From: Thermococcus kodakarensis KOD1
GTDB lineage: Archaea; Methanobacteriota_B; Thermococci; Thermococcales; Thermococcaceae
Direction of reading: 5' to 3'
Length of the DNA: 32,000 bases
NCBI RefSeq assembly: GCF_000009965.1
Contig: NC_006624.1
Coordinates: 210,001-242,000 of the forward strand
Each line of letters begins with the position of its first letter. Position 1 is the stretch's first letter. Shown here in pieces: positions 8,100-27,487 of the stretch. The position numbers and the translations under genes are program-made. The notes beneath the pieces are model-generated. The model saw only the letters and a list, made by a program, of their open reading frames with translations. It was not told the DNA's origin and ran no database searches.

Positions 8100-9118
8100 T
8101 CCAACTCCTCCCTAATGACCCTTAATCCCCTCTCAAGCCCCTTCCCTGAGAGGGATATCCTTATGAAGTTGGGGTAGTCGCCAAAGGCCATTCCTGGAAA
8201 AACGGCAACTCCCCTTGAGAGCAGCCTCTCGGCGAAGGCCATCCCGTCCTGGGGCGTTCTGAGGAAGATGTAGAAAGCTCCCTCCGGCTCAACGAAGTCG
8301 AAACCCCTGAGCATCTTTGAGGCCATCCTGACCCTCTCAAGGTATGCCCTCCTGACTTCTTTGATGAGTTCATCCCTGAGTTCGAGTGCCTTTACTCCAG
8401 CCCTCTGAACGAAGGGAGGGACACATGTTACCGTGCTCTCTATGAACCTCTGTATCCTCCTGATCTCGTTCCGCTCTCCTATTGCGTAGCCGAGCCTGAA
8501 GCCGGTCATGGAGTAGAGCTTTGAAAAGCCCTTAACTGTAACGACGTTTTCGTAGAGCTCTCTCGCTGGCGTAAAGCGGGTGAAGCTGAGCTCAGCGTAA
8601 ACCTCGTCCGAGAGCACCTTAACACCGTTCTCCTCGGCGACATCGAGCAGTCCCCTGATCTCCTTACCAGACAGAACCCTCCCCGTCGGGTTGTTGGGGT
8701 AGTTGATTATGATGAGGTCAGCTTTTATCTCCTCAACCCTCGGAATCCACCTCTCATCCAGGGTCGTTTTTATAACCTCTACCTCCCTCCAGAACTGGCG
8801 GGCTATCAGCGAATAGGCGTTCCAGCGGGGAGAAACGACGGCCACTTTTTTAGCAGACGCTATCTCCGCCGCTATGAGGATCTTCGCACCTGGGGCGACG
8901 ATGACTTCATCGGCCGAAACCCCCTCGAACTCGGCTATCCTCTCCCTCAGCTCCCTTATTCCGCCGGTACTCGTGTAACCGGTTTCTCCCCTCCTGAGCG
9001 ACTCTACAGCCTCCTCGATTATCTCCCTCCTGACCGGTATGTCCGGCTGACCGGCGTCGAGCCTCGACTCAGGCCTAACCTCATTTATCCTGTTGAAAAA
9101 CTCGTAAACGTTGAACAT
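8024..9118 (-). CDS. Class-I PLP aminotransferase, probable aromatic/aspartate aminotransferase
   Basis: 364 aa with NYPNNPTG and the PLP lysine in GFSKLYSMTGFRLGY. It sits between chorismate mutase and tyrA. Confidence 0.9.
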   Translation of the reverse strand: MFNVYEFFNRINEVRPESRLDAGQPDIPVRREIIEEAVESLRRGETGYTSTGGIRELRERIAEFEGVSADEVIVAPGAKILIAAEIASAKKVAVVSPRWNAYSLIARQFWREVEVIKTTLDERWIPRVEEIKADLIIINYPNNPTGRVLSGKEIRGLLDVAEENGVKVLSDEVYAELSFTRFTPARELYENVVTVKGFSKLYSMTGFRLGYAIGERNEIRRIQRFIESTVTCVPPFVQRAGVKALELRDELIKEVRRAYLERVRMASKMLRGFDFVEPEGAFYIFLRTPQDGMAFAERLLSRGVAVFPGMAFGDYPNFIRISLSGKGLERGLRVIREELECALESRATEGWEGSSRGVSAEGSR

Positions 9119-9359
9119 CCCTGCTCACCTCAAGGATGGCTTCGAAAACCCTCCTAAATTCGCCTGCCCTGGATAGAACTTCTCTCTCCCTGTCCGGGTC
9201 GTAAACTGGCATTTCGAGCTTTAGCTTGGCTTCCCCTATGGCCTTTGCTACTTCCATCCTCCTCTGGAGAAGCTGGAGAATTTCCCGGTCAATCTCGTCT
9301 ATCCTTCTCCTCAGAATGGCAAGTTCTACAAGATCAGGACTCGATATTGGCGGGACATC
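9081..9359 (-). CDS. AroQ-type chorismate mutase, not in the ORF track and lacking an in-frame ATG/GTG/TTG before the catalytic helix
   Basis: My own translation of the - strand: (GDVPP)ISSPDLVELAILRRRIDEIDREILQLLQRRMEVAKAIGEAKLKLEMPVYDPDREREVLSRAGEFRRVFEAILEVSRDVQRLRVFQQDK*. This is the LRxxIDxIDxxIL signature. The first canonical in-frame start is ATG 9257, giving only 58 aa. The 5' boundary is uncertain. Confidence 0.8.
   Translation of the reverse strand, partial: DVPPISSPDLVELAILRRRIDEIDREILQLLQRRMEVAKAIGEAKLKLEMPVYDPDREREVLSRAGEFRRVFEAILEVSRDVQRLRVFQQDK
9326..9358 (-). other. Candidate 10-codon leader ORF MSRQYRVLIL* out of frame with chorismate mutase
   Basis: GGTGACGGTG precedes ATG 9358. 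ATG TCC CGC CAA TAT CGA GTC CTG ATC TTG TAG. It is the first AUG after the predicted TSS. Confidence 0.3.
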
Positions 9360-9362
9360 ACC
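9346..9362 (-). repeat. Copy of the 17-nt module GGTGATGTCCCGCCAAT
   Basis: Exact match to the copies at 17688-17704 and 17724-17740. With GGTGAC upstream, the similarity to the copy at 17724 extends to about 23 nt. Confidence 0.9.
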
Positions 9363-9390
9363 GTCACCGTTTTGAGCTTGAAGTTCGAAG

Positions 9391-9421
9391 ATTTAACCTT
9401 TTGGACAGGTTCACCTAACCA
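9391..9421 (-). promoter_or_regulatory. Internal tyr-phe promoter: Tar operator plus TATA, overlapping the aroC 3' end
   Basis: The - strand reads TGGTTA-ggtgaacc-TGTCCA-aaagg-TTAAAT. One half-site is perfect and the other matches 4/6, with the same layout as the trp promoter. It overlaps the aroC stop codon (9411-9413). Confidence 0.65.
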
Positions 9422-15809: not shown

Positions 15810-16726
15810 GTCAGCATCACCTCAACCTTCTTCACGACGCTTTCCGCAGTCAGACCATAGCGCTCCAGGAGTGAGAAGTAGTCCCTGCTCGACCTGCCGA
15901 ACTCCGTCGTCCCGATCCTGATGAGCCTCTTCGGCATCTTTTCCGAGAGAACCTCCGCTACCGCTCCCCCGAGGCCGCCGTGAATGCTGTGCTCCTCAAG
16001 GGTAACGACCAGGTCTACCTTAGCGGCCAATCTCAGCAGCGTTTCCTCGTCGAGGGGCTTTATCGTGTGCATGTCAACGACTCCAGCGCTTATTCCCCTC
16101 TCCTCAAGCTTCCTCGCCGTTTCGAGGGCCACCGACACCATAACGCCAGCGGCCACAAGGAGAACGTCGCTTCCCTTTCTGAGGACACTTGCCTTTCCCA
16201 GCTTCAGCTTTGGACTATCATAGACCCTTGGAGCGTGGTCCCTGCCGAGGCGCATGTAGACGGGCCCCTCGAGCTCGATGACCTGTTTGAGGAGGACGGG
16301 AACTGAGGGGGCGTCCGCCGGAACAACTACCGTCATGTTCGGGAGGACGCGCATGAGGGCTATGTCCTCAAGGCACTGGTGTGATGAGCCGTCCATGTGG
16401 TCTGAAAAGCCAGAGTGCGTTGGAATGAGCTTGACGTTGAGGTTGTCCCTGGCTATCGTGTTCCTTATCTGCTCCCAGGCCCGCATCAGGAAAGCCGCAA
16501 AGGCCGAAACAACTGGGATTTTGCCCCCTATGGCCAGACCCCCAGCCATCGAGACCATGTCCTGCTCGCTTATACCCACCTGGATGAACCTCTCGGGAAA
16601 GGCCCTCTCGAAGTAGGCCGTTTTCGTCGAGCTCTTGACGTCCGCATCTAGGACAACGATGTTCGGGTTCTCCTCCCCTAGCTCAACCAAAGCCCTCCCA
16701 AAGGCTTCCCTGAAGCTTTCTATCAC
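15806..16726 (-). CDS. Transketolase, C-terminal (pyrimidine-binding) subunit
   Basis: Matches the Pyr and C-terminal transketolase domains. Preferred start is GTG 16726 ([10 protein letters not shown]), preceded by GAGGTGG and forming a GTGA overlap with the upstream stop. The track start at 16849 is an extension. Confidence 0.9.
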
Positions 16727-17382
16727 ACTTCCCACCTCGCTATGATGACCTTCGGCCTTCCCCCGAGTTTTTTGGCCGTTTCGAGGGCCTTCTTGAGCTC
16801 CTCCTTCCTGTTGGGAACCCCCATAACCTCCCAGCCGAAGGCCCTCCACTTGTCCGCCAGCGGTTCCTTGCTCAGTATCTCCTCTGTTCCTCCCGTGAGC
16901 TGGAAGTAGTTCCTGTCGACTATCGCTATCACTCTATCGAGCCTGTGGTGCGATGCTGTCATAGCAGCTTCCCAGACCTGGCCCTCGTCCAGCTCGCCGT
17001 CGCCGAGAATGACGTAAACGTATCCCTCTTCCCCGTCCATACGCTTGGCCATCGCTATACCGTTGGCCACCGAGAGTCCCTGGCCGAGGGAACCGCTGGA
17101 GACCTCTATGAAGGGCAGCCCCCTGATTACGTGGCTCGGGAGGCCGTCTATGTCCGCGAAGCTGTAGAGCTCCTCGTCGCTGAGAAGACCCATTTCGTGG
17201 AGCATCACGTAGAAAGCTGGAGCCGAGTGGCCTTTGCTGAGTATTACGACGTCTTTCTCTCCCTTCTCCTCGAGCACTGCTGAGAGAATTTCGAGGCAGG
17301 TCTCCGAGGACTCGAGGTGGAAGTTGTTGACGGGCTGGAGCATGCTCTGGAGCTTTGTCCTCGGATCGAGGGCCTCACTCAT
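16723..17382 (-). CDS. Transketolase, N-terminal (TPP-binding) subunit
   Basis: 219 aa with SKGH, GSLGQGLS and GDGELDEG TPP-binding motifs. Confidence 0.88.
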   Translation of the reverse strand: MSEALDPRTKLQSMLQPVNNFHLESSETCLEILSAVLEEKGEKDVVILSKGHSAPAFYVMLHEMGLLSDEELYSFADIDGLPSHVIRGLPFIEVSSGSLGQGLSVANGIAMAKRMDGEEGYVYVILGDGELDEGQVWEAAMTASHHRLDRVIAIVDRNYFQLTGGTEEILSKEPLADKWRAFGWEVMGVPNRKEELKKALETAKKLGGRPKVIIARWEV

Positions 17383-17689
17383 GGCCGTCCACCTCCAGAA
17401 GGCTGAGAATCATTCTCCCGTGCTCGGTAAGCCTAACGGGCCTGGGGTTTTCCTTAGTGCCGTAGTCTATGAGCCCGAGTTCCTTCAGAATTCTGGCGTT
17501 CAGCTTCAGCGTCGAGAGGGCTTTTCTTTCCTTTCTGCTGAGCTCCTCAAGGAGAGAATTCAGGGAGCGGTGTCTGCCGCTTATGCTCCTCAGTATCAGT
17601 CTCTGGTTCTCGTTCAAAGCCCTCAGAACGAGCTTCCTGATTACCTCTTCCCCGCCGGGGGTTACTAATATTGGCGGGGCATCACCCAT
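17375..17689 (-). CDS. tar: Small winged-helix transcriptional regulator, Tar-like aromatic amino acid activator
   Basis: Predicted wHTH core (EEVIRKLVLRALNENQRLILRSI...LKELGLIDY). First gene of the aro unit, with an 8-nt overlap on the transketolase gene. The track start (TTG 17767) lies 4 nt from the TATA box and so cannot be used. ATG 17689 (MGDAPPILV, 104 aa) is preferred. GTG 17746 is an alternative if the mRNA is leaderless. Confidence 0.75.
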   Translation of the reverse strand: MGDAPPILVTPGGEEVIRKLVLRALNENQRLILRSISGRHRSLNSLLEELSRKERKALSTLKLNARILKELGLIDYGTKENPRPVRLTEHGRMILSLLEVDGHE

Positions 17690-17736
17690 TGGCGGGACAT
17701 CACCTGGTTTGAAGACTTCATAAATTGGCGGGACAT
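17665..17736 (-). other. Candidate 23-codon leader ORF MSRQFMKSSNQVMSRQWVMPRQY*
   Basis: GGTGATCGGTG precedes ATG 17736. This frame runs through all three 17-nt modules. TTT, TGG and TAT each follow one module, and the ORF stops at TAG 17667-17665. Confidence 0.3.
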
Positions 17737-17740
17737 CACC
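17670..17740 (-). repeat. Three copies of the 17-nt module GGTGATGTCCCGCCAAT, with starts 18 and 36 nt apart
   Basis: Copies at 17724-17740 and 17688-17704 are exact. The copy at 17670-17686 has one mismatch (GGTGATGCCCCGCCAAT). Confidence 0.92.
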
Positions 17741-17770
17741 GATCACCGGAGACGGATGAATCAGCAACCC

Positions 17771-26349: not shown

Positions 26350-27431
26350 GTCATCATCCTCCTCGCTTCTTCGGCCAGCATCTCGGGTGTGAAGGGCCTC
26401 CTTGAGGCCTTTACCCTCCTGAGGAGCTCTTCGATTATCTCCTCGTCGTGGATTCCGAATCTGGATAGATGGAAGCGTATCGTCTCCCTGCCTGCGAAGC
26501 GGTCGACGTAGATGGTCCTCTCCCTGCCGAATGTTTCAGCCGGAAGGAACTCGTAGAAAGACGGATCCCTGACGACCGCCGAAACGTGCAGGCCGGCCTT
26601 GTGTGTGAAGGCGTTCTGGCCGACTATGGGGTAGTTGACCTGGACCTGAAGGCCGGTTATCTCGCTCACGAGTCTGCTCAGCGAGTAGAGCTTCTCCAGC
26701 CTGTACTTTTTGACCCCGTAGTGGTAGTAGAGCGCCGCCAGAAGATGGGACAGGTCGACTATCCCTGCCCTCTCCCCAATTCCGTTAACGGTGGCATCCA
26801 CCAGCGTAGCCCCGGCCTCGATTCCCATTATCGCGTTTGCCAGGGCCAATCCCAGGTCGTTGTGGCAGTGCACATTTACGGGAATCCCGAACTCGACGAC
26901 GCGCTTGACGAGGTCGTAGAACTCGAGGGGATGAGCGGCTCCGGTTGTGTCCGCTATGCTCACCCTGTCGACCTTGAGCTCCCTGGCGAGGTTCAGAGCT
27001 GCTGTGAGGTTCTTCCACTCCGTCCTCGTGGTGTCCTCCGGTGTGAAGCGGATCTTCAGCCCGTGGTCCTTGGCGTATAGAATAGCATCCTCGACCCTGG
27101 TGAGGGCTCCGCTGAGATCCGTCCTGAACCTCCTTTCCAGGCACCTCTGAGAGAGGCACATGAAGATACCTATCCATTCTGCTTCGGCCTTCAGAACGAG
27201 GTCGATATCGCTCCTCAGGGCCCTTGAGTGCGCCAGAATGTTCGCGTTGAGGCCATGGGAAGCGAGAAGGCGTATCCCCTCAAGGATCTCCCCGCTTACT
27301 GCCGGATGGCCGGCCTCTATAAAATCGACTCCGACCTCATCGAGGGCGATTCCTATTCTAAGCCTGTCCTCCGGGCTGAAGTTTACCCCGGGTGTCTGCT
27401 CCCCTTCCCTGAGCGTTGAATCCAGCACCAT
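26346..27431 (-). CDS. Homocitrate synthase (LeuA/NifV family, no LeuA regulatory domain)
   Basis: 361 aa with DSTLREGEQ and HCHNDLG motifs. First gene of the aminoadipate/LysW operon. Confidence 0.88.
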
Positions 27432-27479
27432 TATTCCACCGCTTAATATGCATCACCCACTCAGCCGTGTGAGGGAGGG

Positions 27480-27487
27480 TATATAAA
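27480..27487 (-). promoter_or_regulatory. TATA box of the lys (aminoadipate/LysW) operon
   Basis: The - strand reads TTTATATA, 49 nt upstream of ATG 27431. GGTGG SD lies just before the ATG. Confidence 0.55.

Follow-up and report, generated by a model that had tools for sequence, protein, structure and literature searches.

How is a chorismate mutase gene translated when its reading frame contains no ordinary start codon? This question is raised by a locus in a 32,000-nt window of the Thermococcus kodakarensis KOD1 genome (positions 210001-242000), on the - strand between aroC and an aminotransferase gene. The gene is TK0261. It was annotated at 219081-219257 (58 aa) in the original record and as a 66-aa "chorismate mutase" in a later NCBI record (P0003), where the first residue M stands in place of an Ile (ATT) of the present frame. 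Every detail of the sequence observation made in the preliminary description was confirmed, with the qualification that the gene is not unknown. The interpretation offered there was only partly supported, as discussed below.

The reading frame and the identity of TK0261

On the - strand, the frame following TAA 9395-9393 reads IFELQAQNGDGDVPPISSPDLVELAILRRRIDEIDREILQLLQRRMEVAK...QQDK and stops at TGA 9083-9081. The listing of open reading frames reports only 9081..9257 in this frame, and a codon check showed no ATG, GTG or TTG before ATG 9257. From the in-frame ATA 9347 to the stop, the frame (9347-9081) comprises 88 codons. The product belongs to the AroQ (type II) chorismate mutases, matching Pfam CM_2 with 69.7 bits against a cut-off of 27 (E 2.4e-19) and the solved chorismate mutase structure 1ybz_A with E 2.2e-22 over residues 8-81 of 88. 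The match to E. coli 1ecm covers query residues 9-61 and chain residues 7-59, equal spans that were read as ungapped, which places R13, R30, K41, D50, R53 and E54 on EcCM R11, R28, K39, D48, R51 and E52. S75 and Q79 correspond to S84 and Q88 by spacing only, which is inference. A start at ATG 9257 (residue 31) would remove the two catalytic arginines R13 and R30, and thus cannot be the functional start. Strain KU216 grows without Tyr or Phe, which is only indirect evidence of enzymatic activity, as a second chorismate mutase elsewhere in the genome is not excluded.

The 17-nt module GGTGATGTCCCGCCAAT is exact at 9362-9346. Three more - strand copies are located at 17740-17724, 17704-17688 and 17686-17670, the last with 1 mismatch. 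Four matches in the window compare with 0.08 expected, and 0 of 100 shuffled sequences reached four. The ATG at 9358 lies in the +1 frame relative to chorismate mutase and opens a short tyr-phe leader ORF (9358-9326), ATG TCC CGC CAA TAT ... TAG, encoding MSRQYRVLIL-stop with TAG at 9328-9326. In the chorismate mutase frame, the module supplies GGTGAT + 9 nt + ATA 9347, as the preliminary description stated.

Promoter and 5' end of the mRNA

Published dRNA-seq data place the transcription start site (TSS) at G 9368, so that the mRNA begins with GGTGAC-GGTGATG. The 5' end (9368-9346) consists of a first Shine-Dalgarno sequence, GGTGAC (9368-9363), and the module (9362-9346), which includes the Shine-Dalgarno-like GGTGAT, ATG 9358, CAA 9349-9347 and the first T of TAT. 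AUA 9347-9345 overlaps CAA and TAT. The tyr-phe promoter (9421-9391) carries the Tar box TGGTTA-N8-TGTCCA (9421-9402), with 2 mismatches to TGGACA-N8-TGTCCA, and the BRE/TATA element AAAAGGTTAAAT (9402-9391), with the TATA at 9396-9391, about 28 nt before the TSS. The TAA that closes the chorismate mutase frame is part of this TATA box. Binding and activation by Tar have been shown experimentally by others (Yamamoto et al. 2019).

In 130 called Thermococcales genes, GGTGA lies mostly 4-6 nt from the start (25 of 38 cases). ATG 9358 lies at the ideal 5 nt from the 5'-terminal GGTGA, whereas ATA lies 10 nt from GGTGA. Hence the GGTGAT + 9 nt spacing of ATA noted in the preliminary description is not supported as a good initiation geometry.

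Leaders of the aro and trp operons

The preliminary description missed that the three other copies of the module form one leader ORF with Phe, Trp and Tyr codons in front of the regulator Tar (TK0271), and that the trp operon has its own F/W/Y leader. The aro leader (17747-17665, - strand) starts at TSS 17747 with GGTGATC, contains the three modules and encodes MSRQ-F-MKSSNQV-MSRQ-W-V-MPRQ-Y-stop from ATG 17736 to TAG 17667-17665. The Tar ATG 17689 overlaps CAA-TGG of module 2. The trp leader (1285-1331, + strand) starts at TSS 1285 (GGTGAG) and encodes MGDGFWIKQGY-stop from ATG 1296 to TAG 1329-1331. It contains GGT TTT TGG and overlaps the trpC ATG 1303, which lies in its +1 frame. All three TSSs are the first G of GGTGA, and the leader AUGs lie 5-6 nt from it. 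The Tar boxes of the three promoters are found at 1232, 9421 and 17802.

The leaders fold no better than shuffled sequences (z from -0.74 to +2.01) and no T-run follows. The only hairpin, CCCCGCC/GGCGGGG in the aro leader, is not conserved in the lineages L003 or L002 (L numbers designate the lineages compared here). Thus, short 5' ORFs with codons for the end products of the pathway are present, conserved in more than 10 lineages, but the alternative terminator and antiterminator structures of a transcription attenuator were not found. No Rfam hits were obtained in the window, and a T-box-like element or riboswitch was rejected. A small hairpin GGUG/CGCC around the leader AUG has only 4-5 bp, is not maintained in L003 or L098 and was judged irrelevant at growth temperature.

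Conservation of the start-less arrangement

A scan of genome contigs with the chorismate mutase alignment was dominated by bacterial chorismate mutases and gave only three useful loci. Orthologues were therefore recovered through protein look-ups and one metagenome pattern scan, in which ten of 24 hits were chance matches without a Tar box or TATA box and were discarded. No ATG, GTG or TTG occurs between the start of the mRNA (mapped in KOD1, inferred from TATA spacing in the others) and the catalytic region in the chorismate mutase genes of KOD1, L001, L002 and L085. The same holds for Tar in eight or more lineages, among them T. barophilus MP (L083), L087, L088, L089, L090, L098, L105 and L109. 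All carry GGTGAY GGTGATG N5 CCAATAT. Every intact module is in frame with the gene body through the AUA position, although the linkers are 12, 15 or 18 codons for chorismate mutase and 11 to 22 codons for Tar. In T. gammatolerans, chorismate mutase has ATG at exactly the position of ATA 9347. The module is therefore not incidental, but conserved upstream of chorismate mutase and Tar genes in many Thermococcales.

The leader frame also bears signs of selection. Among the 36 Tar-linked modules returned by a pattern search, which required CAA followed by T so that neither was free to vary, 35 read GGTGATG and 35 have C (one has T) before CAA, although the codon ending in that base encodes seven different amino acids. 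The codon after CAA is always TTT, TGG or TAT, never TTC or TAC. These leader codons are rare: KOD1 genes use TAT for 10% of Tyr, TTT for 21% of Phe, CAA for 6% of Gln and CGC for 8% of Arg. Where Tar residue 8 is Leu, it is written TTA or TTG (2% and 5% of Leu codons in KOD1), as a TAT in the leader frame requires, and where it is Ser, it is TCT. Indels between modules are multiples of 3, and the leader stop follows the last aromatic codon by 0 or 1 codons in most lineages.

Entry into the chorismate mutase frame

The analysis, together with the published transcript data, establishes that TK0261 is an intact chorismate mutase by sequence, that its mRNA starts at G 9368 and that AUG 9358, the only canonical start on the 5' end, opens a short ORF in the +1 frame written in rare codons. 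It likewise establishes that the chorismate mutase frame has no canonical start but contains AUA 9347 overlapping CAA-UAU, and that this arrangement is conserved and in frame. We conclude that the frame is entered at AUA 9347 from this leader. The way of entry, the trans-frame protein and the catalytic activity are inferred, from sequence and transcript data rather than from protein.

The mechanism that we prefer, tentatively, is a -1 shift at a hungry UAU codon. In this view, ribosomes start at AUG 9358 and reach the rare Tyr codon UAU with Gln-tRNA on CAA in the P site. When Tyr-tRNA is short, the waiting ribosome would slip back one base (C-CAA to CCA-A), read AUA as Ile and continue in the chorismate mutase frame, giving MSRQ-ISSPDLVELAIL... 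of 92 aa, with the tryptic peptide QISSPDLVELAILR. The Shine-Dalgarno-like GGUGAU, which lies 8 nt upstream of CAA in every module, including internal ones, may help by pulling the mRNA back. When Tyr is plentiful, the ribosome would end at the nearby stop. The same module, repeated with UUU, UGG and UAU in front of Tar, would turn shortage of any one aromatic amino acid into more Tar, which then activates all three operons. A stall at UAU covers AUA, so simple occlusion would repress when Tyr is short, and only a shift gives induction on starvation. [quoted passage not shown]

Several findings speak against this mechanism. The two overlapping frames have the layout of a programmed -1 site, with the leader frame ending soon after the site and the -1 frame carrying the functional protein, but there is no slippery heptamer X XXY YYZ. 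The sequence is C CAA UAU, and after a -1 slip the Gln anticodon would pair with CCA at positions 1 and 3 only. No downstream stimulatory structure is predicted. A review of recoding states that slow A-site codons matter more for +1 than for -1 shifts, and that no natural starvation-induced trans-frame protein is known. Finally, T. gammatolerans chorismate mutase and KOD1 Tar have ATG at the AUN position, showing that initiation there is at least possible, and AUA, AUU and AUG are all near-cognate or cognate starts.

A broader reading, which remains possible though less likely than not, is that Thermococcales sense Phe, Trp and Tyr with the ribosome itself. Each module (Shine-Dalgarno-like element, 8 nt, the rare Gln codon CAA, then a rare aromatic codon) would be a starvation-triggered -1 recoding switch moving ribosomes from a dead-end leader into the frame of Tar or of chorismate mutase, and the trp leader would use a +1 version at UUU-UGG. 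This would be the first natural case of hungry-codon frameshifting that yields a functional protein and the first translational amino acid sensor in Archaea, and would explain why lack of any one aromatic amino acid induces all three operons.

Alternative explanations

The strongest alternative, doubtful but only somewhat less favoured than the shift, is near-cognate initiation at AUA 9347, one of the options in the preliminary description. A 30S subunit held by the second GGUGAU would start directly at AUA and give an 88-aa chorismate mutase beginning (M)SSPDLVELAILR. The AUG-led mini-ORF would then be a competing regulatory upstream ORF, whose stalling at the aromatic codon acts on mRNA stability or transcription, not by a frame change. 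AUA, AUU and AUG at the same module position all pair with the initiator anticodon at two or three bases. Besides the ATG of T. gammatolerans chorismate mutase, KOD1-type Tar starts at ATG in module 2 with the same geometry, and several lineages have ATA followed directly by TTG. Non-canonical starts have been proven by N-terminal proteomics in a bacterium (PMC2830850), and chorismate mutase and Tar are plausibly low-abundance first genes. However, AUA lies at an unusual distance from GGTGA, and a strong AUG 11 nt upstream with ideal spacing would out-compete it, yet that AUG is conserved. A ribosome stalled at UAU sits on AUA, so starvation would lower chorismate mutase and Tar, which is the wrong direction. 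Neither the invariant pyrimidine before CAA nor the retention of the Shine-Dalgarno-like element in internal modules is explained.

Termination-reinitiation, also considered in the preliminary description, appears unlikely. Ribosomes would translate the mini-ORF, stop and restart without leaving the mRNA, at AUA or at a downstream non-canonical codon such as AUU 9314 or CUG 9311. The leader stop lies within a few bases of AUA in most lineages, and the Shine-Dalgarno-like element could retain the 30S subunit. This does not generalise, however, because the stop sits 0 to 15 codons after the Tyr codon in different lineages. In KOD1 it is 19 nt downstream of AUA, and in L003, L090 and L098 it is further still. 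A restart at AUU 9314 would leave one residue before the catalytic Arg, the conserved in-frame relation of module and gene body would be unnecessary for a downstream restart, and output would fall on starvation.

It is very unlikely that the module is an operator or RNA site for a trans-acting factor (a Tar half-site or an RNA-binding protein), or simply a duplicated ribosome-binding region, with the aromatic codons a coincidence. TGTCCC in the module resembles the Tar half-site TGTCCA, the repeats are spaced at 36 and 18 nt, and the conserved blocks GGTGATG and CCAAT flank a variable 5-nt core. But the supposed half-site is the variable part of the module (CAACG, CCTTC, CCGAA), and the two or three bases after CCAAT specify Phe, Trp and Tyr in nearly all lineages, including divergent ones such as L003, Pyrococcus ST04 and P. 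abyssi. Indels preserve the frame, a stop follows the last aromatic codon, and this view gives no account of how start-less genes are translated.

Two other routes of translation were rejected. Orthologue proteins begin MNLSKRLNPEVQ... from an ATG or GTG overlapping the aroC stop, from which the frame is open in several relatives. This stretch is the Tar box plus the TATA box and lies upstream of the mapped TSS, the spacer differs by 1 nt between KOD1 and L001, and the frame is closed by different stops in KOD1, L085 and L003, so it was rejected as the general start. A leaderless GUG at +2 of the mRNA is in the Tar frame in KOD1-type aro leaders (GGTGATC spacing), but in the leader frame in all chorismate mutase leaders and in L003, and is not a general route.

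A sequencing or assembly error or a dead gene, as by a missing C (a fourth C would give an ATG-led frame) or a TTG to TCG change after ATA (relatives such as T. stetteri, L097 and L112 have ATA TTG), is the least likely explanation and is not supported, since the module sequence is identical in L001, the TCCCGCC/CCCCGCC stretch and the start-less state recur in independent genomes and metagenomes, all catalytic residues are intact and the strain is prototrophic for Tyr and Phe.

Comparison with known systems

Literature searches on TK0261, archaeal leader peptides, ribosome profiling in T. kodakarensis and programmed frameshifting in Thermococcus, confined to open-access papers, found no description of these leaders. 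The Tar regulon itself is known from the same three promoters (Yamamoto et al. 2019). That study describes transcriptional activation only, found no amino acid effector and does not mention a leader, attenuation, a start codon or frameshifting. A leader ORF with one Phe, one Trp and one Tyr codon in front of tar, plus leaders on the other two operons, gives a concrete and testable answer to how aromatic amino acids may be sensed.

As in the bacterial attenuators E. coli trpL, pheL and hisL, a short ORF at the 5' end of a biosynthetic operon mRNA carries codons for the amino acids made by the pathway, and poorly decoded or repeated regulatory codons are favoured. Those leaders are read as sensors of charged-tRNA supply. 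Here, there is no terminator/antiterminator hairpin pair, the leader overlaps the start of the first gene, which often lacks any canonical start, one leader carries one codon each for three different amino acids, and the host is an archaeon. The 2014 T. kodakarensis transcriptome paper stated that no attenuator had experimental support in Archaea. If the sensor reading is true, ribosome-mediated amino acid sensing, a textbook bacterial mechanism, would extend to Archaea in a structurally different form.

The autoregulatory frameshifts of E. coli prfB (+1) and dnaX (-1) share a short zero-frame ORF ending soon after the shift site, a slow codon in the A site, a Shine-Dalgarno-like element at a fixed distance upstream and a functional trans-frame product, the last of which is only inferred here. 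The module differs in offering no perfect re-pairing (CAA to CCA), and its putative direction, -1 at a hungry sense codon, is not a known natural case. The trp leader GGUGAU-GGU-UUU-UGG resembles the layout of prfB, an internal Shine-Dalgarno-like element followed by 3 nt, CUU and UGA. In Sulfolobus solfataricus, fucA1 is an archaeal gene expressed from two overlapping frames by a -1 programmed frameshift (PMC1616953). The fucA1 site is a classical A-AAA-AAT heptamer in mid-gene and is not known to sense a metabolite. In TK0261 the shift would be at codon 4/5 of a leader, without a heptamer.

Non-AUG initiation used for control (E. coli infC AUU) and the proteomically proven non-canonical starts of Deinococcus deserti are similar in that an AUN codon stands where relatives have AUG and the gene products are plausibly of low abundance. 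The atypical Shine-Dalgarno spacing and the conserved strong overlapping AUG are different, and no archaeal precedent for AUA was found. As inferred from sequence, two conserved proteins, chorismate mutase and Tar, are made in many species without any canonical start codon, either by recoding or by AUA initiation, both of which are rare. The annotation is affected as well: TK0261 is truncated in the databases, and many orthologues carry false N-terminal extensions that translate the Tar box and the TATA box.

Genomic Context and Identity of the Chorismate Mutase Gene

The genes of the region (T. kodakarensis KOD1, genome positions 210001-242000) were matched to the supplement of the primary transcriptome paper, where gene coordinates equal the window coordinates plus 210000 (TK0261, 219081-219257; TK0262, 219411-220478; TK0271, 227375-227689). 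The + strand carries the trp operon. The - strand carries the tyr-phe operon, consisting of chorismate mutase TK0261, an aminotransferase (9118-8024) and prephenate dehydrogenase (8099-7329), and the aro operon, which extends from the gene of the regulator Tar (TK0271) down to chorismate synthase (10478-9411).

The preliminary description had reported a chorismate mutase frame without a canonical start codon, preceded by a 17-nt module and a mini-ORF containing a Tyr codon, and all of these statements hold. The - strand frame following TAA 9395-9393 encodes ...GDGDVPPISSPDLVELAILRRRIDEIDREIL... down to TGA 9083-9081 and contains no ATG, GTG or TTG before ATG 9257. The product matches the Pfam family CM_2 (E 2.4e-19) and the PDB chain 1ybz_A, deposited as chorismate mutase (E 2.2e-22). 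The match to E. coli 1ecm covers equal spans (query 9-61, chain 7-59) and, read as ungapped, places R13, R30, K41, D50, R53 and E54 on the catalytic residues R11, R28, K39, D48, R51 and E52. A protein starting at ATG 9257 (residue 31) would lack two catalytic arginines; the preliminary description had noted that this start would delete the catalytic first helix. The 17-nt module occurs four times on the - strand against 0.08 expected, and ATG 9358 gives MSRQYRVLIL-stop in the +1 frame. The gene is already known, but it is mis-annotated. The database versions are truncated, namely the original 58-aa version and a 66-aa NCBI version (protein record P0003), whose first residue M stands where this frame has Ile (ATT).

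Transcription Start Sites and Promoters

The module is the 5′ end of the mRNA. Differential RNA-seq by Jaeger et al. maps primary transcription starts at 219368(-), which is window position 9368, the first G of GGTGAC-GGTGATG; at 227747(-), which is window position 17747, the first G of GGTGATC-GGTGATG; and at 211285(+), which is window position 1285, the first G of GGTGAG. Each of these lies about 28 nt after a TATA box that follows a Tar box TGGACA-N8-TGTCCA, and the run-off lengths given by Yamamoto et al. (360, 286 and 250 nt) imply the same starts. The transcriptome supplement also lists antisense transcription starts at 9398 (+) and 1267 (-), 30 nt and 18 nt upstream of the tyr-phe and trp sense starts, respectively, which would represent divergent transcripts from the same Tar box/TATA regions. 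In supplement file 10 of the same work, for the region 16723-17689 (- strand), the read counts for TK0271 are 4 to 15 times those of the next gene TK0270 in three of the five numeric columns (for example, 1299 against 86). This may reflect 5′-end enrichment, processing or partial termination after Tar.

It follows that the N-terminal extensions annotated on many orthologues (MNLSKRLNPEVQAQNGDGDVPPI...) are the Tar box, the TATA box and the promoter spacer read as protein. Such extensions are carried by many database entries for chorismate mutase and Tar (protein records P0001, P0002, P0005, P0008-P0012, P0016, P0018 and P0021; for example, MNLSKRLNPEVQ... and ...LPKSLNRL...) and are systematic start-site mis-annotations. 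In KOD1, this frame is broken by one extra base in the spacer and closed by the TAA of the TATA box, while in L085 and L003 (loci of relatives, the latter from a divergent metagenome bin) it is closed by other stops.

Leader ORFs with Aromatic Codons

Each of the three mRNAs opens with a short ORF, the AUG of which lies 5-6 nt after the terminal GGUGA. In 130 called genes from six Thermococcales loci, GGTGA sits 4-6 nt from the start in 25 of the 38 cases where it is present. The tyr-phe leader reads MSRQYRVLIL-stop. The aro leader (17736-17665) reads MSRQ-F-MKSSNQV-MSRQ-W-V-MPRQ-Y-stop; here, the three other module copies are in one frame, and each is followed by a different aromatic codon. 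The trp leader (1296-1331) reads MGDGFWIKQGY-stop and overlaps the trpC ATG 1303. In the KOD1-type aro leader (17665-17747, - strand), a GTG at +2 of the mRNA (17746) is in the Tar frame and open through to Tar. Tar could therefore also be made as a 123-aa leaderless product (VIGDVPPIYEVFKPGDVPPMGDAPP...), and some database entries (P0015, P0022) annotate it that way.

The pattern is conserved. The aro leaders read MSRQFTRPSNQVMSRQWVMPRQY in L001, MSRQFTRSSNQVMSRQWVMPHQY in L002 and MSSQFMEYKPVKSRQWVMPNQY in the divergent L003. Further aro leaders read MPRQFTQSKVMPRQWVMPCQYL (L081 and Pyrococcus sp. ST04), MPRQWVMPRQWVMPRQY (T. stetteri), MSRQFVKSSNQVMSRQWVMSRQYW (L085) and MRGEFKVMPYQWKILE (P. 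abyssi type), and single-module forms read MPRQYL or MSRQYL (T. barophilus group). The trp leaders keep ..G[DE][GC]FW.. behind an in-frame ATG or GTG in four other lineages; the GDGFW core and an in-frame upstream start are kept in L001, L003, L084 and L085. The number and type of modules vary among close relatives (P0013, P0018; L084, 1653-1760), with two modules (W, Y) in P0013 and P0018 and W-W-Y in T. stetteri with a decayed first module. This looks like unequal recombination between the repeats.

Evidence for Selection on the Leader Frame

Several features indicate that the leader frame is under selection. The pattern search for Tar-linked modules required GGTGA, CAA and a following T, but left free the two bases after GGTGA and the base before CAA. 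Among the 36 Tar-linked modules returned, 35 read GGTGATG, and 35 have C (one has T) before CAA, although this base ends codons for seven different amino acids. Since CAA and the following T were required by the pattern, these two features are established by direct reading of the loci obtained through protein look-ups rather than by that search. The codon after CAA is always TTT, TGG or TAT, never TTC or TAC. TAT accounts for 10% of Tyr codons in KOD1, TTT for 21% of Phe, CAA for 6% of Gln and CGC for 8% of Arg, i.e., these are rare codons.

Inside the undisputed Tar coding region, where residue 8 is Leu, it is written TTA or TTG (2% and 5% of Leu codons in KOD1), as a TAT in the other frame demands, and where it is Ser, it is TCT. 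The base after ATA is T in every locus obtained through protein look-ups, although the residue it starts varies between S and L; the metagenome hits had this T imposed by the search pattern and were not counted for this point. Indels between modules are multiples of three, and the leader stop follows the last aromatic codon by 0 or 1 codons in most lineages.

Conservation of the Start-Less State

The start-less state is conserved and hence is not an error. Between the start of the mRNA (mapped in KOD1, inferred from TATA spacing elsewhere) and the catalytic region, there is no ATG, GTG or TTG in the chorismate mutase frame of KOD1, L001, L002 and L085. The same holds for the Tar frame of T. 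barophilus MP, where the deposited protein begins with M at an ATT codon, and for the Tar frame of loci L087, L088, L089, L090, L098, L105 and L109. All of these have the same 5′ end, GGTGAY GGTGATG N5 CCAATAT. In every case, the ATA inside CCAATAT is in frame with the gene body and no stop intervenes, although the linker lengths differ: 12, 15 or 18 codons to the I-D-E-I-D motif of chorismate mutase, and 11 to 22 codons to the LRALN motif of Tar. No out-of-frame case was seen among the loci that have a Tar box and TATA box.

Where a canonical start exists, it sits at or next to this position. T. gammatolerans chorismate mutase has ATG in place of ATA, with a decayed leader MFR-stop. T. stetteri, L097, L112, T. 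paralvinellae and T. gammatolerans Tar have ATA TTG, which reads Tyr-Trp or Tyr-stop in the leader frame. The chorismate mutase genes of T. barophilus and T. paralvinellae have no module, and the T. barophilus gene starts at an ordinary GTG. The module is therefore one solution among several and not a necessity. The host strain KU216 grows without Tyr or Phe, while the Tar deletion does not; the pathway through chorismate mutase therefore works, which is only indirect evidence for the enzymatic activity of the product of this gene.

Possible Routes of Entry into the Chorismate Mutase Frame

The preliminary description had considered initiation at AUA, reinitiation after the mini-ORF, a 1-nt deletion and a real inactivating mutation, and this interpretation is only partly supported. 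The analysis of sequences and published transcription starts establishes the intact reading frame, the position of the module at the 5′ end of the mRNA, the leader ORFs and the conserved absence of a start codon, whereas the enzymatic activity of the product, the translation of the leaders and the mechanism by which the chorismate mutase frame is entered are inferred. Two routes fit the anatomy.

The first route, which we prefer only tentatively, is a -1 shift. In this view, the ribosome starts at AUG 9358, reads Ser, Arg and Gln and waits at the rare UAU; with the A site empty, it slips from CAA to CCA and reads AUA. This route needs exactly what is conserved: the AUG, the pyrimidine before CAA (which would pair with the third anticodon base), CAA rather than CAG, a slow aromatic codon, an early stop in the leader frame and a Shine-Dalgarno-like element at a fixed 8 nt in every module, internal ones included. 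It would also give the right regulatory direction, as starvation for Tyr would yield chorismate mutase, and starvation for Phe, Trp or Tyr would yield Tar, which activates all three operons. This matches the published finding that the lack of any one of the three amino acids induces all three operons, while Tar itself does not respond to them. However, the weaknesses of this route are real. There is no slippery heptamer, re-pairing is possible at only 2 of 3 positions and no stimulatory structure is predicted. In addition, a review of recoding states that slow A sites matter more for +1 shifts and that no natural starvation-induced trans-frame protein is known.

The second route, initiation at AUA, is possible but somewhat more doubtful. 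It is supported by the ATG found at that position in relatives and by the AUN pattern. However, the spacing from the Shine-Dalgarno sequence is atypical, a strong competing AUG is conserved, and a ribosome stalled at UAU would cover AUA, so that starvation would lower expression. Reinitiation is considered very unlikely, an operator or other non-coding role for the module slightly more so, and an error or a dead gene the least likely of all; the rest of the probability is assigned to none of these readings.

In the trp leader (1285-1331, + strand), the geometry is different, as the trpC frame is +1 relative to the leader. GGU-UUU-UGG would allow perfect +1 re-pairing of Phe-tRNA at a waiting Trp codon, into the trpC frame, behind a Shine-Dalgarno-like GGUGAU 3 nt upstream. 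Since trpC has its own ATG, this reading is only suggestive.

Comparison with Known Systems

In logic, the closest relatives of these leaders are bacterial leader-peptide attenuators, although the defining terminator/antiterminator structures are absent here. The layout resembles prfB- and dnaX-type frameshift sites, but the slippery sequence is missing. Archaeal -1 frameshifting has a precedent in Sulfolobus fucA1. No Rfam family matches the window. Literature searches, limited to open-access text, found no description of these leaders or of the start problem. The lack of a start codon is a conserved feature tied to a previously undescribed family of aromatic-codon leader ORFs on all three Tar-controlled operons, for which the proposed mechanisms remain unproven.

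Related Modules and Mini-ORFs

The module also heads Tar-like genes in divergent metagenomic archaea. In the metagenomic locus L104 (8413-10172), two module-led Tar-like ORFs sit in one aro operon containing transketolase, DAHP synthase, dehydroquinate synthase, dehydroquinase and shikimate dehydrogenase. The first runs in frame into the transketolase N-terminal-domain ORF (289-aa ORF, 8482-9351), and the second sits before the transketolase C-terminal-domain gene. In L090, a module-led Tar-like gene lies outside any aro operon.

Mini-ORFs in a GGTGATG context were also observed at the starts of other biosynthetic operons. The first gene of the homocitrate/isopropylmalate synthase-LysW cluster (27431-27480, - strand) is preceded by GGGTGATGCATATTAAGCGGTGG, an out-of-frame ATG in a GGTGATG context reading MHIKRW.... 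The ATTAAGCGG (I-K-R) core is kept in L081 (1000-1056), and this may be an analogous leader on a lysine/leucine operon. The T. barophilus aspartate kinase/threonine cluster (L083, 9717-9760, - strand) is preceded by GGTGATGCACTATCGGTGA, a 4-codon ORF MHYR-stop overlapping the annotated GTG start.
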